Notes: a model not told the origin generated them from the sequence alone. A stretch of 64,000 nt of DNA from Clostridium sp. CAG:302 (GCA_000431795.1 FR887372.1:3087-67086); one strand, 5' to 3'; shown: positions 2,431-62,708, counted from the stretch's first letter. Program-made: numbers and translations.

Positions 2431-3436
2431 TTAATGATTATCCAAATTAATATGCATATTTAAATCTTCTTCTGTAGGTAATTTATCAAGAATATTTTTG
2501 GGAATTATGTTTTTAACTTTAAAAGAAGACACACCGATTGGTACATTTGTAGATTTTAAAGACCAATCAACTGATAATCTATCTTTATCTTTACAAAGTA
2601 ATAATCCTATTGTTGGATTATCGTTTTTCGTTCTCAAAGTTTCATCAATAGCGGTTACATAAAAACCAAGTTGCCCAGTATATTCAGGTTTAAACTTATT
2701 TACCTTGAGTTCTACAACAATATAACATCTTAACTCCAAATGATAGAACAATAAATCTATATAATAATCATTTCCATCAACAGATATTTTATATTGATTT
2801 CCAACAAAACTGAAGCCTTTTCCTAATTCTAGTAATACATCCCTTATCTTATCTAGTAAAGCTTCTTCCAATTCCTTTTCTTTGTAATTTTGATGTAATG
2901 TTATAAAGTCAAATATATATGGATCTTTAAAAGTATTATTTACTAAGTCACTATCATTTGGTGGTAATAATGCACTAAAATTATTATTAGTACCTCCTAT
3001 TCTTTTATGAAAATGGCTTTCAATTTGAATAGAAAGTACACTACGACTCCAACCATTTTTGATAGTATTTTCAGCATATATTTTCCTCAAACTTTTATCT
3101 TTGATTTTTTCAATTAAAAGTATATTGTGCCCCCCAAGGCAATTTGGCAACAAGTTGTTGCCAACTCTCATCATCCTTGTATTCTTCATAAAACAATCGC
3201 ATCGCTCTAATATTTCTTTCCGAAAATCCCTTCATTGAAGGAAAAGTTAATTTAAGTTCAGTAGAAACCTGCTTAGTAAAATTATTCCCATAAACTTTAT
3301 TTTCTGATACGATTTTTCCCAACCTGAAATATAGTTTAATTAAATTACTATTAACTTCCTGTATTGTTTTTATTTGAGTACTTATAATTTCTTTCTTCAT
3401 ATTAGCAATAATCATTTTAAAATCTTTTTCTATCAT
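2431..3436 (-). pseudogene. yhcG: YhcG/DUF1016 PDDEXK-family nuclease-like gene, frameshifted at a G6 homopolymer
   Basis: Two overlapping ORFs, 3110-3463 (N-terminal YhcG_N-like, ...QQLVAKLPWG) and 2431-3189 (C-terminal DUF1016, KDPYIFDFI...IDLLFYH...VVELK...PEYTGQLGFYV), lie in different frames. Removing one G from the GGGGGG tract (top-strand cccccc at 3131-3136) restores a continuous ...AKLPWGHNILLIEK... protein. The RBS GAGGGGG precedes the ATG at 3436. Confidence 0.7.
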
Positions 3437-3449
3437 AACATCCCCCTCA

Positions 3450-3759: not shown

Positions 3760-3962
3760 AGAAAAAAGATGATACCATAAAAGGACGAATTAATATCCGC
3801 GGTACCACCTTTCTTTATAACATAAGTTATACTCTTAAATCTTTAACCTGATTAACGGTATAAAACTAAAGGGTGAATTCATACTAAATAATTAACTCTT
3901 CTTTCACCCTCTAAGAGCTCGCTAATAATTATTTTTATAGTATTACTACTTCCTCATCACTG
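3760..3962 (-). promoter_or_regulatory. T-box riboswitch leader (presumed Phe-responsive) with terminator
   Basis: Minus strand contains GAAAGGUGGUACCGCGG (top 3796-3812), matching the conserved T-box sequence AGGGUGGNACCGCG. Upstream is a Stem-I-like AGAGGGUGAA...UUCACCCU helix. Downstream is a hairpin plus UCUUUUUUCUUUUUU run. It lies upstream of the operon ending in pheS-pheT. Confidence 0.7.
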
Positions 3963-3967
3963 TCTTA

Positions 3968-4510
3968 TTATATAGTCATTAAATCTTTTTCTTTCTCTTT
4001 TAATTTTTCATCTACAATTTTATTATATTCATTAATTAAATCTTGTACTCTTTCATTACCTCTTTTTTCTTCATCCTCAGGTAATTCTAAGTTTTCTAAT
4101 GCTTTATTAGCATCTTGTCTAATATTTCTAAGAGCTATTTTTGCTTCTTCACCTAACCCTTTAACTTGTTTTACTAATTCTTTTCTTCTATCTTCAGTAA
4201 GTGGTGGTATTACTATAAATACTACTTCTCCATTGTTATTAGGAGTTACTCCTAAATTAGCTTCAAAGATAGCCTTTTCTATTGCTCCAAGACATGATCT
4301 ATCAAATGGTTTAATAGATAATTGCCTAGCCTCAGGTATAGATATATTTGCTAAACTTTTAAGTGGTGTTGGTACTCCATAATATTCTACCATAATACCA
4401 TCTAACATATTAGGATTAGCTCTACCTGCTCTAACATTAGTAAACTTGTTTTCTAAAGATTCAATTGTTAACATCATCTTTTCTTCTGTACTATTTAATA
4501 TTTCTTCCAT
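3968..4510 (-). CDS. frr: Ribosome recycling factor
   Basis: The 180-aa product carries the typical RRF sequence (MLDGIMVEYYGVPTPL...IPPLTEDRRKELVK). Confidence 0.9.
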   Translation of the reverse strand: MEEILNSTEEKMMLTIESLENKFTNVRAGRANPNMLDGIMVEYYGVPTPLKSLANISIPEARQLSIKPFDRSCLGAIEKAIFEANLGVTPNNNGEVVFIVIPPLTEDRRKELVKQVKGLGEEAKIALRNIRQDANKALENLELPEDEEKRGNERVQDLINEYNKIVDEKLKEKEKDLMTI

Positions 4511-4700
4511 ATAATCTCCTTTTTTACATTAAATAATATAACATACTTTTATAATTTATACAATATTTTTTATTATTTTTATATTCTTTTTATTTAGTTC
4601 AAGCCTTACTATGTAAGTCTTTCACTATTATATTAAGCCTAATCTTTAGTCTTAATATAATATATCTACATATCTATTATATATAAGCCATATCTATATA

Positions 4701-4731
4701 GCAAAAAGAAAGATATTAGTTATATCTTTCT
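4701..4731 (-). terminator. Rho-independent terminator downstream of mscL (part of repeat family 2)
   Basis: Minus strand shows AGAAAGATAT-loop-ATATCTTTCT (10-bp stem) followed by UUUUUGC. Confidence 0.6.
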
Positions 4732-4771: not shown

Positions 4772-4830
4772 CACAATAGAGACCTTAGGCTCTATTGTGC
4801 CTCTTAAGACTTATCTTAAGACTTAAGAGG
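4772..4830. repeat. Double-hairpin palindromic repeat element, copy 1 of 5
   Basis: cacaatagag-accttagg-ctctattgtg followed by cctcttaag-N13-cttaagagg. The same architecture occurs at 27050-27102, 56891-56942, 59776-59829 and 61977-62030. Confidence 0.8.
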
Positions 4831-10559: not shown

Positions 10560-10633
10560 TGGTGCCAAATGTAAGAATCGAACTTACCTCTAGGCATTAC
10601 GAGGGCCTTGTTCTACCACTAAACTAATTTGGC
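10560..10633 (-). tRNA. tRNA-Thr (anticodon CGU)
   Basis: The reverse complement folds as a cloverleaf: acceptor GCCAAAU/AUUUGGC, D-arm GUUUAGUGGUAGAAC, anticodon arm AGGCC-CUCGUAA-UGCCU (U33, anticodon CGU, A37), T-arm GUAAG-UUCGAUU-CUUAC, then an encoded ACCA. Confidence 0.75.
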
Positions 10634-17373: not shown

Positions 17374-17447
17374 TATACCACCTAGATATATTATTGCATA
17401 AAACTAATAAAAAGTAAACCCTACCCTAGTTATTTTATTATGTTCAC

Positions 17448-17535
17448 TATAAGCCTTACTTTGTAAGTCTTATTAGTGTTATTTTGAGCCTTAAGTCTCA
17501 AAATAATATATCTACATATCTATTATATATAAGCA
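17448..17535. repeat. Intergenic palindromic repeat, family 2 (copy B)
   Basis: aagccttactttgtaagtct...gagccttaagtctc...aatatatctacatatctattatatataagc. It shares modules with 4596-4735 and 19420-19490, and in inverted orientation with 41640-41700. Confidence 0.7.
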
Positions 17536-17673
17536 TAATTTATATATTTAAATTCTTTTTAATTAGTAGTTTATTGTAAATATAATAAAAAGCGGATAGC
17601 CACTATGGAGACATACAATGTCTTACCATCTTACAGCATATCCGCTTTCTGTAGATAATATATTACAATCCAA

Positions 17674-19303: not shown

Positions 19304-19419
19304 TTTAAATCACCAATTTAATTATATAGTATTTTATACTATTTTTCAACTATTTTATGCACTTTAATCCTAAGGTATTAAAGTGTTATTATTAGCCTAT
19401 AGTCTAATAATAATGTGTC

Positions 19420-19490
19420 AGTAACATCTATTATATATAAGCCGTAACTATATATTAAAAGAAAGATATTAGTTATACCTTTCTAATTAT
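19420..19490. repeat. Family-2 repeat copy C including a terminator-like hairpin
   Basis: atctattatatataagcc...aaagaaagatattagttatacctttct; the hairpin AGAAAGGUAU/AUAUCUUUCU is followed by a U-rich tract on the minus strand, at the 3' end of the tmk-like gene. Confidence 0.6.
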
Positions 19491-24441: not shown

Positions 24442-24464
24442 AATTTTTAACCTCCTCTTATATA

Positions 24465-24600
24465 TGATTATTATCTTGTTACAATTTTGATTTTGTTTTT
24501 TTATAATAATCTAATGAGCATATACACCCAATGTAGTATCCGCCGAAAACTCGATAACTACATACCTCGTTAACTATTTCTAGTCTGGCGCTAATTTATA
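24465..24600 (-). ncRNA. glmS ribozyme (GlcN6P-responsive self-cleaving leader)
   Basis: Minus strand reads AGCGCCAGACUAGAAAUAGUUAACGAGGUAUGUAGUUAUCGAGUUUUCGGCGGAUACUACAUUGGG, matching the glmS ribozyme core (AGCGCCAGAACU...GACGAGGAUGG.GGUUAUCGAAUUUUCGGCGGAUGCC). It is followed by RBS AAGAGGAGG and the glmS ATG. Confidence 0.85.
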
Positions 24601-24691
24601 TTTTCTTCTCCCTTCTATAATATAAACTTTATTACATTATATCAGAATATTAAAAACGTGTAAACATCTGTAGTTACAATTAACTATTGGT

Positions 24692-27049: not shown

Positions 27050-27102
27050 CATAACATAGACCCTAGGCTATGTTATGCCTCTTAAGACCTTGGCTTAAGA
27101 GG
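27050..27102. repeat. Double-hairpin repeat element, copy 2 (downstream of rplQ)
   Basis: cataacatag-accctagg-ctatgttatg followed by cctcttaag-accttgg-cttaagagg. Confidence 0.8.
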
Positions 27103-27145
27103 AAAGAAAAAGAGATACCTAAATTAATAGATATCTCTTTATATA

Positions 27146-41469: not shown

Positions 41470-41639
41470 GTAAAAAAAGAACATTTTTTTAACTTTTTTG
41501 ACATTTCACTTTACATTTTAACTAAATAAACATTTTTTAACCATAAAATAGACAAAATATTCCTATTTTATAAGGACTAAATATATACTTCTCTCTTATA
41601 TATAATAGATACAAAGTATTTACTTTTAGACTACTCTAG

Positions 41640-41700
41640 GCTAAAAGTAACACTAATAAAACTTGCGTAGTAAGGCTTATTAGTGCATAGAAAAAAAGAT
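41640..41700. repeat. Family-2 repeat module, inverted copy (D)
   Basis: The reverse complement reads cactaataagccttactacgcaagttttattagtgttacttttagcctagagtagtcta, homologous to the copy B core at 17450-17500. Confidence 0.6.
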
Positions 41701-44378: not shown

Positions 44379-44495
44379 ATATACTTTCTACCTCTTAATA
44401 ATTATAGCATTTTCTTTATATATAAGTAAACTACTTTTACATAAAATTGACATATTTATTGTTACAGTTCGTACTAACGTTACTCACTGCTATAG

Positions 44496-44560
44496 AAAGC
44501 CTTATAGTCTTTCTATAGAAAATTAGAGCCTTCTTAAAGAAGTCTCTAATTTTAGTATAT
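44496..44560. repeat. Tandem long palindromes between efp and xerC
   Basis: ctatagaaag-ccttatagtc-ctttctatag (10-bp arms), then aaaattagagccttcttaaagaagtctctaatttt (near-perfect 35-bp palindrome with the agcctt...aagtct core of family 2). Confidence 0.7.
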
Positions 44561-44750
44561 TTTTTTAGTTTTAATATAAAGAAAATCACCTAACTTAAAG
44601 CATTAAGTTTAGGTGACACCAAATTAATATGGCAACACCCAACAGACGATTATTGAATGTTTCCTTTTTTATTTTATGCAAGTTTCCTTGCTTACATACT
44701 AATATTTATACCTTTTGTCAAACTATTAAAATAGATAAAAAGAAAAGTAT

Positions 44751-49807: not shown

Positions 49808-50251
49808 TTAACATCCTGAACCAGTAGCTGTATTTTTAGTAGTGTCGCTAGCGTTATAAAATTGGCTACCATCAGCAGCAGTAAGTGTTACGCAAATCTT
49901 AGAACCATTAACCTTTACAGTACCACTTAGTCCTGTTGGATTAGTAATACCTGCAGCTTTTAATACAGCAGCATCTAAATTCTTTGCAGTAGTAGTTAAT
50001 CCACCTTCACCAACAAATGTAGTATATTCATCAGCAGGTCCACCAGCTACTCCAGCACCCAATGTAGCAAGTTCATATTGTTTAGTAAACCATTCAGTAA
50101 CTGTACCCGCAGCATTATTTAATTGACTAGTTTTAGCACTATTCATTGAACTAATAACTGATGGTATAGTAACTACGATAATAATAGCAAGTACTACGAT
50201 AACTGCTAATAACTCTATTAAAGTAAATCCTTTCCTATTTAATTTTTTCAT
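49808..50251 (-). CDS. Type IV pilin / pseudopilin (prepilin N-terminal methylation domain)
   Basis: MKKLNRKGFTLIELLAVIVVLAII: a class III signal peptide with the G/FTLIE cleavage motif. There is a C-terminal Cys pair. Confidence 0.7.
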   Translation of the reverse strand: MKKLNRKGFTLIELLAVIVVLAIIIVVTIPSVISSMNSAKTSQLNNAAGTVTEWFTKQYELATLGAGVAGGPADEYTTFVGEGGLTTTAKNLDAAVLKAAGITNPTGLSGTVKVNGSKICVTLTAADGSQFYNASDTTKNTATGSGC

Positions 50252-50308: not shown

Positions 50309-51037
50309 TTAGTCAATTATTTTAAGATAAATATTTACATATTTATCACTATACTTTTTGCTTTTCAATAATTCTAAATTATTATATTTATCTTTTAATT
50401 TATCAAAACTATACTCTAATAATAAGATTCCATTATCTAAAAGTAAATCATACTTAGTAACTAGTTCTATTACTTCTTCCATTACTTCCATTTTATAAGG
50501 AGCATCTACTAGTACAATATTAAACTTAATATTATTATTTTTAAAATATAATAAACTATCTCTATAATCTTTACTAACTATAATACTCTTACTATTAATA
50601 CCAAGATTATTAATATTCTTATTTAAATATCTCAATATATCTTTATTATTATCTACAAAATAACATCTACTAGCACCCATAGATAAAGCTTCTATACCAA
50701 GACTACCAGTACCACAAAATAAATCTAATATGATAGAATCATCAATATAATTTTGAATACTAGTAAACATAGATTCCTTTACTCTATTCATCGTGGGTCT
50801 AGTACCTATTATATTATAAGCCAAATAATTCTTTTCCTTATATTCAGAATATTTATATATTTTTTCTTTTAAAGATATTTTTTCATAATCATCTTTACTA
50901 GTATTATATTTATTAATTAATTCTAATAATTCACTATTATTTATAACTATTTCTTTATAATAATCTAATTTTCTAATTAAATTGCTATTTTCAAAAGAAT
51001 CTATTAACTTCTTTGTTTTATCTATAATATTATTCAT
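50309..51037 (-). CDS. rsmD: YlbF-like::RsmD fusion ORF (duplicate copy 1; 16S rRNA m2G966 methyltransferase domain)
   Basis: N-terminus MNNIIDKTKKLIDSFENS... is a paralog of 52321-52617. The C-terminus (LDLFCGTGSLGIEALSMGA...VLVDAPY) is about 95% identical to 51767-52333. A deletion of about 90 nt relative to copy 2 fuses the frames. Confidence 0.6.
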   Translation of the reverse strand: MNNIIDKTKKLIDSFENSNLIRKLDYYKEIVINNSELLELINKYNTSKDDYEKISLKEKIYKYSEYKEKNYLAYNIIGTRPTMNRVKESMFTSIQNYIDDSIILDLFCGTGSLGIEALSMGASRCYFVDNNKDILRYLNKNINNLGINSKSIIVSKDYRDSLLYFKNNNIKFNIVLVDAPYKMEVMEEVIELVTKYDLLLDNGILLLEYSFDKLKDKYNNLELLKSKKYSDKYVNIYLKIID

Positions 51038-51766: not shown

Positions 51767-52333
51767 TTAATTAATAATTATTTTAAGATAAATATTTACA
51801 TATTTATCACCATACTTTTTACTTTTAATTAATTCTAAATTATTATATTTATCTTTTAACTTATCAAAACTATACTCTAATAATAAAATTCCTTTATCTA
51901 AAAGTAAATCATACTTAGTAACTAGTTCTATTACTTCTTCCATTACTTCCATTTTATAAGGAGCATCTACTAGTACAATATTAAACTTAATATTATTATT
52001 TTTAAAATATAATAAACTATCTCTATAATCTTTACTAATTATCGTACTCTTACTATTAATATCAAGATTATTAATATTCTTATTTAAATATCTTAATATA
52101 TCTTTATTATTATCTACAAAATAACATCTACTGGCACCCATAGATAAAGCTTCTATACCAAGACTACCAGTACCACAAAATAAATCTAATATGATAGAAT
52201 CATCAATATAATTTTGAATACTAGCAAACATAGATTCCTTTACTCTACTCATCGTAGGCCTAGTAGTTTCTACATTATATCCAAGCAATTCTCTTCCTTT
52301 TAAATAACCACTTATTACTCTCATATATGACAA
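51767..52333 (-). CDS. rsmD: 16S rRNA (guanine966-N2)-methyltransferase RsmD
   Basis: MRVISGYLKGREL...TRPTMSRVKESMF...LDLFCGTGSLGIEA...VLVDAPY. Confidence 0.85.
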   Translation of the reverse strand: MSYMRVISGYLKGRELLGYNVETTRPTMSRVKESMFASIQNYIDDSIILDLFCGTGSLGIEALSMGASRCYFVDNNKDILRYLNKNINNLDINSKSTIISKDYRDSLLYFKNNNIKFNIVLVDAPYKMEVMEEVIELVTKYDLLLDKGILLLEYSFDKLKDKYNNLELIKSKKYGDKYVNIYLKIIIN

Positions 52334-56890: not shown

Positions 56891-56942
56891 AACAATGAAG
56901 ACCTTAGGATTCATTGTTCCTCTTAAGACTACAAACTTAAGA
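56891..56942. repeat. Double-hairpin repeat element, copy 3
   Basis: aacaatgaa-gaccttagg-attcattgtt followed by cctcttaag-actacaaa-cttaagag. Confidence 0.8.
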
Positions 56943-56993
56943 GATAAAAAAAGATAACCAATTATTATAAATATTTATAATAGTTATCCATTT

Positions 56994-59239: not shown

Positions 59240-59743
59240 TTACTTATCTTTTCTTTTTATTCCTTTTAATAGAGTTCCAGTAATACCATTTTCTATAACA
59301 CCTTTTACTGTACCTCTAGTATCAAATCCAAGTACATCATCTACTTTATCAAAAGCATTTTTAACCTTTTTTACGCCACGATCAGACATAGTTGTACCTG
59401 TTACAGCATCAGTAACTTTAGTAACAAATTTTACTGCTTCAATAGCATTATCAAACTTAATAGTAAAGTTATTTTTAATAGTTTGTATGTATACTTCACT
59501 ATTCTTTTGATGAACTTGTACCTTATTATTATATAACTTAATATCACTAATATTTACTATATTAATTACTTTTTTATTTTCTTCTTTCTTTAAAAGACTT
59601 ACTTTTTTAATTTCTACCTTTTCAATTATTATCTTTTTTGAAGTAAGTGTTAATAATAATTTATCTTCTACATCATTATAATATACTTCTGTAGTTAATA
59701 ATATTACTTCATCTTCCGCTAGTTCATAATTTTCCATATTCAT
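59240..59743 (-). CDS. Hypothetical protein, possible bacterial PH-like domain
   Basis: The 167-aa product starts MNMENYELAEDEVILLTTEVYY... Its promoter/RBS/first 5 codons are duplicated upstream of the ATPase gene. Confidence 0.45.
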   Translation of the reverse strand: MNMENYELAEDEVILLTTEVYYNDVEDKLLLTLTSKKIIIEKVEIKKVSLLKKEENKKVINIVNISDIKLYNNKVQVHQKNSEVYIQTIKNNFTIKFDNAIEAVKFVTKVTDAVTGTTMSDRGVKKVKNAFDKVDDVLGFDTRGTVKGVIENGITGTLLKGIKRKDK

Positions 59744-59847
59744 TCCTCCACATATATTATATCACATAAATACTTCATAACATAGACCTTAGGCTATGTT
59801 ATGCCTCTTAAGACTACAGGCTTAAGAGGACATATACAAAAAGCAAT
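59733..59847. repeat. About 115-bp direct repeat, left copy (contains double-hairpin element copy 4, an extended -10 promoter and RBS/ATG)
   Basis: About 93% identical to 61933-62049. Confidence 0.85.
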
Positions 59848-59868
59848 AAATTTATAAAATATTATCAC

Positions 59869-60822
59869 CTAAAATTTATTCTTAAAATCATTCATAAATT
59901 TCTTATATTTATTAAATTCATTATCCTTATTATTTATTTGAAGAACATATAATATTTTTCCATATAGTATATTTATATATTTTTCTTTTTCTATATCTAT
60001 ATTTCTTTTCTTTAAGTGAGATTCCAAACCAAATTTTCTTATATAATATATTTCCTGTCTTATTTCTTTACGATATTTTGCACTAACCTGTACTTTTTCA
60101 TTAACTACTATTCCAGTTACATTTTGATTAGATGATTTATGTATTATATGTATTTTTTTATTATTTAATTCTAATCCTAACTTATATAACATTTTTCTTA
60201 CTTTAACTATAACTTCTCTTGGATTAAATTCTCCTGAAAATGTCATATCATCTGAATATCTTGTATACGATATATTATTTTCTTCACACCATAACCCTAA
60301 TACTTCATCAAACTCTTTCATTACTAAATTTGAAATATATGCAGATGTAGGAGCACCTTGCATTAGATAATCATCATAAGTACATAAATAAGTTAATATC
60401 ATCCCTACTGATTTAGGAAAATATTCTATTGAAAAACAAGAATTGTATACATCTATAAAAGATATATTTTCAAAAAAATCTTTAATATCTAATTTTAAAA
60501 TTAATTCTTTATTTAAATGTGGAATAGCATTATCTTTCAAATTAATACCCTTATGGTATGCTTTTGCATATTTAGATATTGCTTTATTATCAAGAATTTT
60601 TACTAATATTTGCCTTTGAATATGCTTTAAAAGTGAATTTGGTTCATATATCGTTCTATATTTCCCATTTTTCTTTTTTATTTTATATATTTTATAATTG
60701 TTTTCTATATTATTACTAATAGAATAAATGGTATTCAAATATTTCTTTTTATCTTTACAATTAAACAATTTGAGAGATAGTAAAAATTCATTACATTCTT
60801 CTTTACCTATGTATTTCCACAT
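59869..60822 (-). CDS. Retron-type reverse transcriptase
   Basis: RT motifs 1-7: KKKNGKYRTIYEPNSLLKHIQ, LDIKDFFENI, LMQGAPTSAYISNLVM, YTRYSDDMTFSG (cf. Ec86 YTRYADDLTLS), and the retron-specific NQNVTGIVVN (VTG motif). Likely start MWKYIGKEE, with RBS GGGAGG 8 nt upstream. The 5' 69 nt of the track ORF belong to the upstream ncRNA region. Confidence 0.85.
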   Translation of the reverse strand: MWKYIGKEECNEFLLSLKLFNCKDKKKYLNTIYSISNNIENNYKIYKIKKKNGKYRTIYEPNSLLKHIQRQILVKILDNKAISKYAKAYHKGINLKDNAIPHLNKELILKLDIKDFFENISFIDVYNSCFSIEYFPKSVGMILTYLCTYDDYLMQGAPTSAYISNLVMKEFDEVLGLWCEENNISYTRYSDDMTFSGEFNPREVIVKVRKMLYKLGLELNNKKIHIIHKSSNQNVTGIVVNEKVQVSAKYRKEIRQEIYYIRKFGLESHLKKRNIDIEKEKYINILYGKILYVLQINNKDNEFNKYKKFMNDFKNKF

Positions 60823-61012
60823 CTTTACTACCTCCCAACTATTGCAGTGCTCATGATATTGTAATATGGAGATGAACTCAAAGCGTAGCATAGCGAAGCG
60901 ACTACATGAAATGTAGGTAAGTTCATTGAAGTATTACTATTAAATCATCTTAAATAAATTAGTCCCTTAACGACTCGTTAAAGTAGGAAATAATTCCAAT
61001 CACCACTGCCGA
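60823..61012 (-). ncRNA. Candidate retron msr-msd non-coding RNA
   Basis: A locally GC-enriched, highly structured 190 nt sits between an extended -10 promoter and the RT RBS. a1/a2 inverted repeats are GGCAGUGGUGAU (61011-60999) and AUCAUGAGCACUGC (60857-60844). msr-like hairpins are GGAAuuauUUCC and UUAACGaguCGUUAA. A long msd-like stem AUGAACU...AGUUCAU encloses CUACAUuucAUGUAG. Confidence 0.65.
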
Positions 61013-61016
61013 GAAT

Positions 61017-61027
61017 ATTATATCACA
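61017..61027 (-). promoter_or_regulatory. Extended -10 promoter (TGTGATATAAT) for msr-msd/RT
   Basis: Minus-strand TGtGATATAAT lies immediately after the ATPase stop codon. Confidence 0.55.
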
Positions 61028-61033
61028 ATAATT

Positions 61034-61900
61034 TTATTTTTTATCAAATTCTTCTTCATATTGTTTAAAAAAATTATAGTATACTAATACATTAGATAGT
61101 TCTGTCCATTTTTTTGTTACAACAGGTGTATCATCTAAATCATAAATCTTAGCGTCCATTAGTTTTAATAAAAATGGTGAATGTGTTGATATTATAAATT
61201 GACAATTATAAAATCTAGTAGAGTCTTCAATAAACCTTTTTAACTTCAATTGATTTTCCGCAGATAAACTATTTTCTGGTTCATCTAATATATAAATACT
61301 ATCTTCTTTTATCTCTCTTTCCCAAAACATAAGTGCAGATTCACCATTTGACCATTCAATTATATTATTATTACCTAATCTTTCTCTAACAAATTTAGAC
61401 ATTGATTTTCTTTTACTATCATAACTCATTTTTAATTCATCATAATTATCAAAAGAGTTACCATTATTATTAAATTTATAATCTAAATATTCTTTACTTA
61501 ATCTTTCCTTTTGTCTATTAACATTTGCATTAATAGAACGAACATCTATTAAATAATCAAAAACATCATCACTTGTAATTAATTTTATTTCCATTGGTTG
61601 TTCAAAAGACATTTCATAATCACAATGTTCAACATATAAATCAAAATATGAACCTTTATCTATTGGCGACTTCCTTGATGCATTTAATTTTTGTGAAATC
61701 ATATTTATAAGAGTTGTTTTACCAGAACCATTACCACCATAAAATATTGTTATTTTATCAAAATTTATCTCTTTAAATGATTTCGATGAAAATAAATGAA
61801 GTGGATAATTATTATTAAATATGTTTCTTCTCTCTTCATTAAATTCAATATTATGTTCTTGGATTTCATCTAATAATGTAAATTTTTTTAAATAAACCAT
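61034..61900 (-). CDS. ABC/OLD-like AAA ATPase (Walker A GGNGSGKTT, Walker B ILDEPE, H-loop STHSP); candidate retron effector/accessory protein
   Basis: The 288-aa product has the complete minimal ABC-type ATPase motif set. It sits immediately upstream of the msr-msd promoter, with its own TGGTATAAT promoter and RBS AGGAGGTG. Confidence 0.7.
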   Translation of the reverse strand: MVYLKKFTLLDEIQEHNIEFNEERRNIFNNNYPLHLFSSKSFKEINFDKITIFYGGNGSGKTTLINMISQKLNASRKSPIDKGSYFDLYVEHCDYEMSFEQPMEIKLITSDDVFDYLIDVRSINANVNRQKERLSKEYLDYKFNNNGNSFDNYDELKMSYDSKRKSMSKFVRERLGNNNIIEWSNGESALMFWEREIKEDSIYILDEPENSLSAENQLKLKRFIEDSTRFYNCQFIISTHSPFLLKLMDAKIYDLDDTPVVTKKWTELSNVLVYYNFFKQYEEEFDKK

Positions 61901-61932: not shown

Positions 61933-62049
61933 TCCATATTCATTTCCTGCACATATATTATACCACATAAATACTTCATAACATAGACCTTAGGCTATGG
62001 TATGCCTCTTAAAACTACAGGCTTAAGAGGATATATACAAAAAGCGATA
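61933..62049. repeat. About 115-bp direct repeat, right copy (contains double-hairpin element copy 5 at 61977-62030)
   Basis: It pairs with 59733-59847. It retains a vestigial MNMEN start codon context, now out of frame with the ATPase gene. Confidence 0.85.
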
Positions 62050-62177
62050 GGACTCTCGACCTATCTACATATAGCATTAATATTATGTATCTTTAAATTT
62101 AAATAATTAATTTTAATAACATTTAAAGTTTGAAAATAAAACTTGACAATTTTGTTACCTAAATGTTACCTAAAAAA

Positions 62178-62708
62178 TTATCTAGTATGTCGTCTTAAAG
62201 TTTCATCACTAGTTATTAATTCTGAAATTGAATTTCTCTGTAATTCTCGTAATTTAGAATAACTCTCTAAAAATTGTTTTTGATCTATTTTTCCTGTATT
62301 TAAAGCATGTAATAAATCTTGATACTTTATTTCCATTAATTCATATAATTTTTTTAACTTTTCTAAATACAAATTATCAATATGTTTTTCAAATTCAGTT
62401 CTAATTGCTTCTCCTTCAAATAAATCAGCTATCATTTCAATAGCAATATCACGTGAAATAATATTAGCTCTATGTATCTTATCAATTTCTTGTATTTTTG
62501 AAAAAGTGCTTTCAGATATCATATCAAATGATTCAGGAATATCATATCTAACTCTAGAATTTACTCCCCTTTGAGCAACAACCTGTTTTACTAAATTTAA
62601 TGTTTTTTTATCATCAATTAAAATAGAATTATTTACAGCATTTATAGATAAATTATTATCAACTACGTTTATTTCCTTAAAATCTTTTTTATTATTTATA
62701 TCAGTCAT
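62178..62708 (-). CDS. Hypothetical protein (176 aa)
   Basis: ORF with no recognisable motif. Confidence 0.4.
   Translation of the reverse strand: MTDINNKKDFKEINVVDNNLSINAVNNSILIDDKKTLNLVKQVVAQRGVNSRVRYDIPESFDMISESTFSKIQEIDKIHRANIISRDIAIEMIADLFEGEAIRTEFEKHIDNLYLEKLKKLYELMEIKYQDLLHALNTGKIDQKQFLESYSKLRELQRNSISELITSDETLRRHTR

Follow-up and report, generated by a model that had tools for sequence, protein, structure and literature searches.

REP, BIME and REPIN elements are proteobacterial repeats mobilized by RAYT, a Y1 HUH transposase. The repeat family described here, which is present in the 64,000-nucleotide stretch of Clostridium sp. CAG:302 DNA that was analysed (the window) and in other gut genomes, works like these elements: both are short palindromes outside genes, placed at gene 3' ends where the flanking genes are co-directional or convergent; both occur as single copies and as inverted pairs and are non-autonomous; and both form structures that are able to act on mRNA ends and that are substrates for recombination. 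It nevertheless departs from the class on several counts. There is no 5' GTAG (GTAG lies only within the commonest hairpin-1 loop variant, CCTGTAGT), the copy number is low (tens of copies, against hundreds per genome for classical REPs), and no RAYT was seen among the neighbours scanned in 8-20 kb blocks. In addition, the element is an obligatory, linker-less tandem of two hairpins whose stems covary under a conserved apex, whereas REPs conserve the whole sequence, and it belongs to a low-GC Firmicute-like host, where it shows a strong gene-sense orientation bias.

Integron attC sites share with the element the conservation of structure over sequence, a bulged (extrahelical) base, a uniform orientation and a position 3' of ORFs at cassette borders. 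Unlike attC, the element has two hairpins instead of one, its copies are mostly solitary between housekeeping genes, its consensus lacks the R''/R' cores (RYYYAAC/GTTRRRY), and there is no IntI/attI platform; no integron integrase adjoined the copies, the only tyrosine recombinases seen being XerC- and XerD-like. Pneumococcal BOX, RUP and SPRITE repeats, Bacillus MICs and MITEs are likewise structured, intergenic and lineage-specific, and an inverted pair of MICs, as here, can bracket passenger genes without a transposase. The present repeat differs from all of these in having no known likeness to IS ends and no target-site duplication that could be seen, in the predominance of solo copies, and in that its inverted partner (B-type, described below) is a sub-family that has diverged and has a conserved 26-nt B-box of its own.

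Intrinsic terminators resemble the element in being stable gene-sense hairpins immediately after stop codons, but the element's apex sequence is conserved across unrelated genes and the element often lies downstream of a canonical terminator. The dual-hairpin RNA targets of ANTAR (PMC3369931) also consist of two tandem small stem-loops with conserved loop features; the element's loops, however, are not hexaloops with A1/G4, it has no overlapping terminator, it lies at 3' ends instead of in leaders, and against Rfam at E<=10 it gave no match beyond chance-level hits of at most 20 bits. The Rfam search that an earlier note on this DNA had called for was equally clear at gathering thresholds, where the whole window returned a T-box, a tRNA and glmS only; the family matches no Rfam entry, ANTAR, terminator-like and sRNA families included. 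Apart from the non-fitting ANTAR lead, no description of an equivalent repeat was found in the literature. The repeat is presented as a real, previously undescribed family of double hairpins behind genes in uncultured low-GC gut bacteria.

A dispersed double hairpin with covarying stems

Five copies with one orientation and a two-hairpin design had been described in the window by the earlier note. All five are present (A1-A5, Table 1), each ~54 nt in length, the third extending to 56944. The pattern CCTCTTAA-N5-20-TTAAGAG matched only these loci in the window (0 expected from 100 shuffles), the exact GACCYTAGG core occurred in the window at these loci alone, and a repeat search clustered the copies as a single five-member family. 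A1-A5 all matched a covariance model built from 24 distinct copies, on the minus strand and with scores of 70-82 bits (E 1e-16 to 5e-20). As had been claimed, each copy lies 3' of a minus-strand gene: mscL, rplQ, a ttcA-like (PP-loop) gene, the retron RT gene and the gene at 62178. The products of these neighbours are MscL, ribosomal protein L17, a PP-loop (ttcA-like) protein, a reverse transcriptase and an unannotated 176-aa protein.

On folding, every window copy formed two adjacent hairpins (dG -17.5 to -29.7 kcal/mol, z -2.2 to -6.5), in line with the design first proposed. Read on the minus strand, which is sense for all neighbouring genes, hairpin 1 is CCTCTTAAG-loop-CTTAAGAGG, and hairpin 2 follows directly, without a linker, as a 10-bp stem, CCTAAGGT and the complementary stem. 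Across the family, each hairpin is a 9-10 bp stem of freely varying sequence capped by a conserved AG-CCTAAGGT-CT apex. This invariant apex, AG-CC-TAA-GG-T-CT, is asymmetric and carries a bulged T.

Table 1. Positions of repeat copies, related units and neighbouring features (window numbering unless a contig is named)
Feature	Position	Strand	Setting or score
Copy A1	4772..4830	-	11 nt past mscL stop; covariance model 74.1 bits
Copy A2	27050..27102	-	43 nt past rplQ stop; 73.6 bits
Copy A3	56891..56944	-	3' of PP-loop/ttcA-like gene's terminator, 49 nt past stop; 69.9 bits
Copy A4	59776..59829	-	39 nt past retron RT stop; 82.4 bits
Copy A5	61977..62030	-	3' of recG-type terminator (62046-62065), 147 nt past stop of 62178 gene; 74.2 bits
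rplQ terminator	27110-27141
106-nt module, right-hand direct repeat	59743..59848	-	includes A4
106-nt module, left-hand direct repeat	61944..62049	-	includes A5; 94% identical to 59743-59848
Cargo between A5 and A4	59869..61900	-	retron-type defence module
AAA/PtuA-like (PtuA/AriA-like) ATPase gene	61034-61900	-	in retron cargo
Ec107-like (type III-A) retron RT gene	59869-60891	-	in retron cargo
ATPase-RT spacer	60892-61033		143 nt
Diverged double hairpin	4633-4681	+	A-type covariance model, 18.4 bits
Diverged double hairpin	17445-17506	+	A-type covariance model, 28.4 bits
Diverged double hairpin	19360-19413	+	A-type covariance model, 41.6 bits
Diverged double hairpin	44491-44553	+	A-type covariance model, 28.9 bits; 113 nt upstream of xerC
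Diverged double hairpin	41620-41684	-	A-type covariance model, 20.9 bits
B-type unit	4592..4717	-	B-box GCTTATATATAATAGATATGTAGATA + 4633-4681 hairpins; upstream of frr
B-type unit	17438..17552	-	upstream of PD-(D/E)XK nuclease gene
B-type unit	19343..19470	-	upstream of fmt
B-type unit	41578..41688	+	opposite orientation; 3' of LdcB-like carboxypeptidase gene's terminator
B-type copy	L004:5840-5959		beyond window
B-type copy	L009:879-980		beyond window
B-type copy	L009:3842-3966		beyond window
~400-nt leader	L004:3440-3750
~400-nt leader	L027:6590-6935
~400-nt leader	L115:2430-2640
T-box leader	3778-3969	-
glmS ribozyme	24457-24603	-
tRNA-Thr	10560-10633	-
efp-xerC interval	44590-44740	-	conserved ~130-nt stretch
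YhcG/DUF1016 PD-(D/E)XK nuclease gene	2431-3189	-
82-nt direct repeats	2195-2276/3425-3506		80% identical
Pilin-like N_methyl protein	49808-50251
RsmD-like (Cons_hypoth95) methyltransferase gene	50309-51037	-
RsmD-like (Cons_hypoth95) methyltransferase gene	51767-52333	-
300-nt repeats	50315-50614/51776-52075		in RsmD-like genes

The stems vary by compensatory change. Among the 24 copies, 98.9% of cells were paired and double changes affected 8 of the 12 hairpin-2 pairs; among 41 distinct copies aligned to the model, 98.1% of cells were paired and double changes affected 17 of 22 pairs (hairpin 1, 8/10; hairpin 2, 9/12), with the caveat that a model-fitted alignment is biased towards the model's own structure. 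The covariation score was 0.552, against 0.131 for shuffles (0 of 500 as high) and at most 0.114 with the partners slid. The arms are thus compensatorily variable, as had been proposed, and hairpin 2 is near-invariant within the window, but this second property does not extend further, since hairpin 2 covaries as well once the copies of other genomes are included.

The pairing is Watson-Crick in 877 of 902 cells (97%), the remainder being 8 G-U, 7 A-C and 10 other mismatches, and folding energy is equal for the sense and antisense strands. These statistics are without an RNA signature. The 24 copies had hinted at wobble favouring the gene-sense strand, all of their one-sided hairpin-1 changes being G-U; the hint was rejected because G-U is about as frequent as A-C in the larger set and because the folding energies are strand-equal.

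At the rplQ site, comparison of two contigs (L003 with L001 at 3411-3438, orthologous to window 27050-27077) revealed that the hairpin-2 loop CCTAGGGT had become its exact reverse complement, ACCCTAGG, with the stems unchanged. This change is a flip at the DNA level between inverted arms. Particular stems recur at unrelated sites: CATAACATAG is common to the rplQ, recG/167-aa, A5 and L016 sites, CACAATAGAG to the mscL and 429-aa gene sites, and CATAAGGAAG is present at two sites. On sequence grounds, this sharing points to sub-families by descent. At ttcA, the orthologous copies of the window and L025 have been kept with compensatory differences.

A strict-pattern scan of one genome per species recovered 31 loci, all in ~8 MAG species. 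The carriers are labelled uncultured Tenericutes or Bacilli and come from the human gut (for example UMGS1185, UMGS610, and Hadza and Nepal MAGs). Each MAG held 5-9 strict-pattern matches and a few more found via the covariance model; the number of canonical copies seen per MAG was roughly 10-15. The first pattern kept hairpin 1 fixed, and a stem-agnostic metagenome scan, defined by two AGCCTAAGGTCT apexes 16-24 nt apart, was therefore run. It matched more low-GC gut contigs, with hairpin-1 stems that were very different yet complementary (TTTTTGAAG/CTTCAAAAA and GCAGAAAG/CTTTCTGC are examples), together with a few unrelated high-GC tandem repeats. The strict pattern had no match in viral contigs, and BLAST of the 106-nt module around A4 and A5 had none among phage and plasmid records. 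Judging from strain contigs, the host genome is at least 1.27 Mb in size and includes sporulation genes; in this 'Tenericutes'-labelled organism the sporulation genes are Coat_F, CotZ, YabP and YqfD (L038/L046).

Inverted relatives and variable DNA at the copies

The covariance model detected five further, diverged copies in the window, which are inverted relatives and were absent from the earlier list. Four of the five sit within a second repeat, named B, recognized by repeat search and nhmmer. In a B unit, the conserved 26-nt box GCTTATATATAATAGATATGTAGATA, with its perfect TATAAT, precedes an A-like double hairpin in inverted orientation. The start codon downstream of most B units (frr, fmt, the PD-(D/E)XK nuclease gene) is 40-110 nt away. 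Behind mscL, the order is A1, a 40-nt 'ext' tail, a terminator, an inverted B-type copy and frr. The diverged copy upstream of xerC belongs to a ~290-nt stretch that is missing from a sister species, and this copy is missing in L107. A...B inverted pairs occur with and without cargo, and the 'empty' rplQ allele keeps a solo A. In L009/L033, three genes are bracketed by an inverted B pair.

The earlier note had suggested a recombination hotspot, given the retron at one copy. The suggestion has real, if circumstantial, support in the 106-nt flanking repeat, in a cassette junction exactly at the hairpin foot, and in synteny and assembly breaks. The retron, however, does not sit at a single copy: A4 and A5 flank it, each within a 106-nt direct repeat of 94% identity. 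Besides the element, each 106-nt module has a terminator T-tract, a leader that includes TGnTATAAT, an RBS and an ATG. A5 lies upstream of the ATPase and RT genes that make up the retron module, and A4 lies downstream of the RT gene, 32 nt ahead of the start of a 167-aa gene. The element itself was rejected as the retron's msr/msd RNA, since the copies at mscL, rplQ, ttcA, recG and elsewhere have no RT. The ATPase-RT spacer has a TGnTATAAT box before the RT gene and, from its sequence, may hold the msr/msd RNA; when folded as a candidate retron non-coding RNA, its stability was no better than that of shuffles.

In other species the recG hot spot reads ileS, recG, terminator, element and 167-aa gene; in the window, extra genes and the retron lie there between the two 106-nt module copies. 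UMGS1185 has three module copies within 10 kb downstream of recG, one of them decayed. Contigs often end at copies. Among strain contigs that carry the 167-aa gene, most break off at the element and the sole long one is interrupted there by a scaffold gap, so that a clean empty site in the same species did not emerge.

Strains of the window's species have, at rplQ, either the element alone or the element followed by 2.5 kb and a B unit. The 2.5-kb insert (L004/L006) spans exactly from the hairpin-2 3' foot to the foot of the inverted B's last hairpin, and no target-site duplication is evident at it. The L004 insert was rejected as a transposase carrier, as it encodes two secreted proteins with SipW-type signal-like N-termini and without Pfam or PADLOC matches. 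Its first ~400 nt form a leader that comprises a tail, a small ORF and its RBS, a run of G (G9) and a terminator. Leaders of 86-87% identity come after the element behind mscL in another species (L027), behind the 429-aa gene (L014/L037) and behind rplQ in a sister species (L115). It fronts operons for secreted proteins with SipW-type signals, the small ORF coming after GAAAGGAGGCCC, with a run of 8-9 G and a terminator-like hairpin, and on these features it looks like an undescribed attenuator or regulatory leader.

Other genomes differ further. Some sister species have A...B at rplQ and then murG instead of ecfA, a synteny break; a closer relative has no element and an extra 188/216-aa gene; and the rplQ site is without a copy in L116/L117. 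In L025, a 178-aa gene lies between ttcA and its terminator, upstream of the element and not at a hairpin foot. In several cases, copies are kept at orthologous sites in species that are 86-96% identical, and the family is therefore not very mobile today.

Placement 3' of genes, mostly in the gene-sense orientation

All copies are intergenic. Across ~27 distinct sites, 23 copies are sense to the upstream gene and 4 are antisense, all four of the latter between co-directional genes. None lies between divergent genes, and at least 5 sites lie between convergent genes, where the copy is sense to the nearer upstream gene. The extragenic, gene-3' placement typical of REP palindromes is thus found here, with 23 of 27 copies behind a co-oriented gene.

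At 10 sites the element is 1-15 nt past the stop codon, without a further hairpin in between; at another 10 the gap is 21-55 nt, and a separate hairpin and T-tract terminator usually intervenes (rplQ, ttcA, recG). Three window sites have such a terminator between gene and copy (rplQ, ttcA and 62178), A2 lying immediately 3' of rplQ's own. On the other side, the next start codon is 30 to about 390 nt away; A3, for instance, is 103 nt upstream of a P-type ATPase gene.

The earlier note's suggestion of a terminator is not supported if a classical one is meant. The 3' flank mostly opens with 2-4 A (AAA/AAG/ATA), followed by T-rich sequence, and an immediate T-run was present in one copy only (L034). 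A lenient terminator scan flagged hairpin 2 of A1 and A4 only. An identity as intrinsic terminators was rejected for most copies, since the copies mostly lack an adjoining U-tract and, in the window, three of five come after a distinct canonical terminator. The earlier note had also raised a possible RNA-stability element; the gene-sense bias, as read from gene arrangement, favours some transcript-level role, and the pairing statistics carry no RNA signature.

Orientation was also compared with the replication strand, using GC skew at third codon positions as a proxy. Within a locus this skew changes sign with gene strand and can thus be treated as belonging to the DNA strand. At 9 sites the sense strand of the element is the G-rich one, and at 8-9 sites it is C-rich; its orientation thus follows transcription rather than the G-rich strand, and the replication-strand orientation expected for single-strand transposition was rejected. 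The 23:4 sense bias and the confinement to gene 3' ends, independent of strand skew, show that the direction of transcription matters. Copies may be tolerated or useful only as a transcribed 3' double stem-loop, or insertion may be targeted to gene ends. As a separate observation, about half of the loci (L014, L020, L022, L026, L028, L030, L031 and L034, compared with the window, L013 and L017) have a strongly negative GC3 skew (-0.2 to -0.5) over whole 8-kb gene blocks, and the skew is strongly positive in the others, a pattern suggesting that, for a Firmicute-like genome, unusually many genes lie on the C-rich, presumably lagging, strand.

DNA-level and transcript-level explanations

The explanation that we prefer, tentatively and at somewhat less than even confidence, is that the repeat is a small, non-coding dispersed palindrome of the REP/REPIN/BOX class, specific to one clade of uncultured low-GC gut Bacilli. 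The earlier description of a REP/BOX-like structured element outside the annotation is supported: the copies are dispersed, structured, extragenic and strongly covarying, and have no Rfam, phage or plasmid match. A DNA-level palindrome is favoured because of the dispersal, the stem-sharing sub-families, the two-strand Watson-Crick palindromes, the inverted relatives, the loop flip and the presence/absence differences. Such an element would propagate and be maintained at the DNA level as a structure-dependent palindrome, likely through mobilization or conversion in trans of folded single strands by a putative enzyme, which would explain scattered sub-families with differing, perfectly Watson-Crick stems. 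No transposase, RAYT/HUH enzyme or dedicated recombinase was found in the 8-20 kb blocks around the matches, and this result counts against the model, as do the low copy number, the lack of an evident target-site duplication and the copies kept at orthologous sites.

Copies are confined almost wholly to gene 3' regions, mostly in gene-sense orientation, where they would be transcribed as a stable double stem-loop and might benefit the cell, or at least do no harm, as a 3'-end barrier or insulator between transcription units. As a side effect, the copies, being identical dispersed sequences and possibly specific sites, could act as joints for the gain, loss and shuffling of accessory cassettes, such as the retron and the surface-protein operons. 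If this is right, the repeat is an undescribed REP-like family in a poorly known, uncultured lineage common in the human gut, with an unusual design in which apex and fold are conserved and stems drift by compensatory change. It would account for MAG assembly breaks in these organisms, provide a handle on variable cassette loci, including defence systems and surface proteins, and offer a test case for small palindromic repeats kept for RNA-end function versus DNA mobility.

The strong gene-sense bias is what would be expected of an RNA-level element, and the DNA-level model needs an extra assumption of selection or targeting to accommodate it. A purely RNA-level cis-element is possible, if on the whole unlikely: a double stem-loop in 3' UTRs or between cistrons that stops 3'-to-5' exonucleases, aids or takes over termination, or is bound by a protein at its conserved CCUAAGGU loops, its copies having arisen by duplication and been kept by selection on the RNA fold. 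The gene-sense orientation at 23/27 sites, independent of GC3 skew, speaks for it, as do the 10 sites at 1-15 nt past the stop without an intervening hairpin, the stable folds with strong covariation, the terminator-scan flags on hairpin 2 of A1 and A4, and the orthologous copies kept with compensatory differences at ttcA (window versus L025). Yet three of the five window copies follow a separate hairpin and T-tract terminator and would therefore often go untranscribed, and the 3' flank usually opens with A-runs, not U. The pairing is also unlike that of long-selected RNA helices, G-U (8) being about as scarce as A-C (7) and outnumbered by the other mismatches (10). Strand-symmetric folding energies, perfect stems in the inverted copies as well, and a flipped loop that persists in one strain argue in the same direction, and the DNA-level palindrome remains the preferred reading.

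A structure-specific recombination site, in which the double hairpin is a substrate of a tyrosine recombinase or an HUH nuclease and cassettes join at the hairpin-2 foot, is improbable. The tyrosine recombinase forms considered were integron attC-like sites and Xer recombination of a folded single strand, of the kind known from CTX phage. Such a site would fit the L004 insert, which runs exactly from the hairpin-2 3' foot to the inverted copy's foot, the element-containing direct repeats that bracket the retron, the three module copies within 10 kb downstream of recG in UMGS1185, and the attC-like combination of a conserved asymmetric apex, a bulged base and free stems. It would also fit the inverted copies just upstream of xerD (L012/L029) and of xerC (window), but the xerC association is not conserved in sister species, whose efp-xerC spacer is 88 nt or without the element; the adjacency was therefore treated as incidental and the link to Xer rejected. 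No integrase adjoins any array, and neither the GTTRRRY/RYYYAAC motif nor the 11-6-11 dif architecture can be read from the sequence. The 178-aa gene of L025 lies upstream of terminator and element, not at the foot; most copies are solitary between housekeeping genes; orientation follows genes, contrary to lagging-strand single-strand substrates; and ordinary homologous recombination between repeats could equally give the cassette borders.

The dif site occurs once, spans 28 bp in an 11-6-11 arrangement and has the conserved XerD arm TTATGTnAAnT. The element was rejected as a dif/Xer site, being multi-copy with variable arms and an 8-nt centre, and its adjacency to xerC is not conserved. A wider version of the recombination reading, a dispersed integron-like cassette system without a platform, is also quite improbable. 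Here promoter-carrying cassettes (retron modules, surface-protein operons) would be inserted and excised at the hairpin-2 foot, between core genes, by structure-specific recombination on folded single strands through a putative or housekeeping (Xer-type) recombinase. Were this true, it would reveal a new way for reduced genomes to exchange genes.

It is very improbable that the element is a double-stranded operator, bound by a dimeric transcription factor just ahead of downstream promoters: the two palindromes do abut an extended -10 (TGnTATAAT) in the 106-nt module, ahead of the 167-aa and ATPase genes, but the stems change freely and symmetrically, a symmetry that a sequence-reading protein would not require, at least 5 convergent-gene sites have no downstream gene to regulate, the next start codon is at varying distances of 30 to about 390 nt, and promoter-like matches, including those predicted in the B-box and the 106-nt module, are at the level of chance for AT-rich DNA (26% GC).

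Several other features of the window were recorded (Table 1). The efp-xerC interval holds a conserved ~130-nt non-coding stretch after a TTGACA-type promoter-like box, ending in a strong terminator (GTCACCTAAACTTAA...TTAAGTTAGGTGA+T-run). The stretch, which has no Rfam match, is also present in the sister species L108/L109 and may, from its sequence, be a small RNA or an attenuator leader. The ordinary RNAs of the window are a T-box leader, a glmS ribozyme and tRNA-Thr, and a pilin-like N_methyl protein is also encoded. The YhcG/DUF1016 nuclease gene is flanked by an 82-nt direct repeat and is present in some strains and absent in others (L038, L043, L046); it is another cassette-like insertion that duplicates adjoining sequence. 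The two adjacent RsmD-like methyltransferase genes, with 300-nt repeats in which stretches are 96% and 87% identical, are a recent tandem duplication, and one of the two copies has an extra N-terminal YlbF-like segment.
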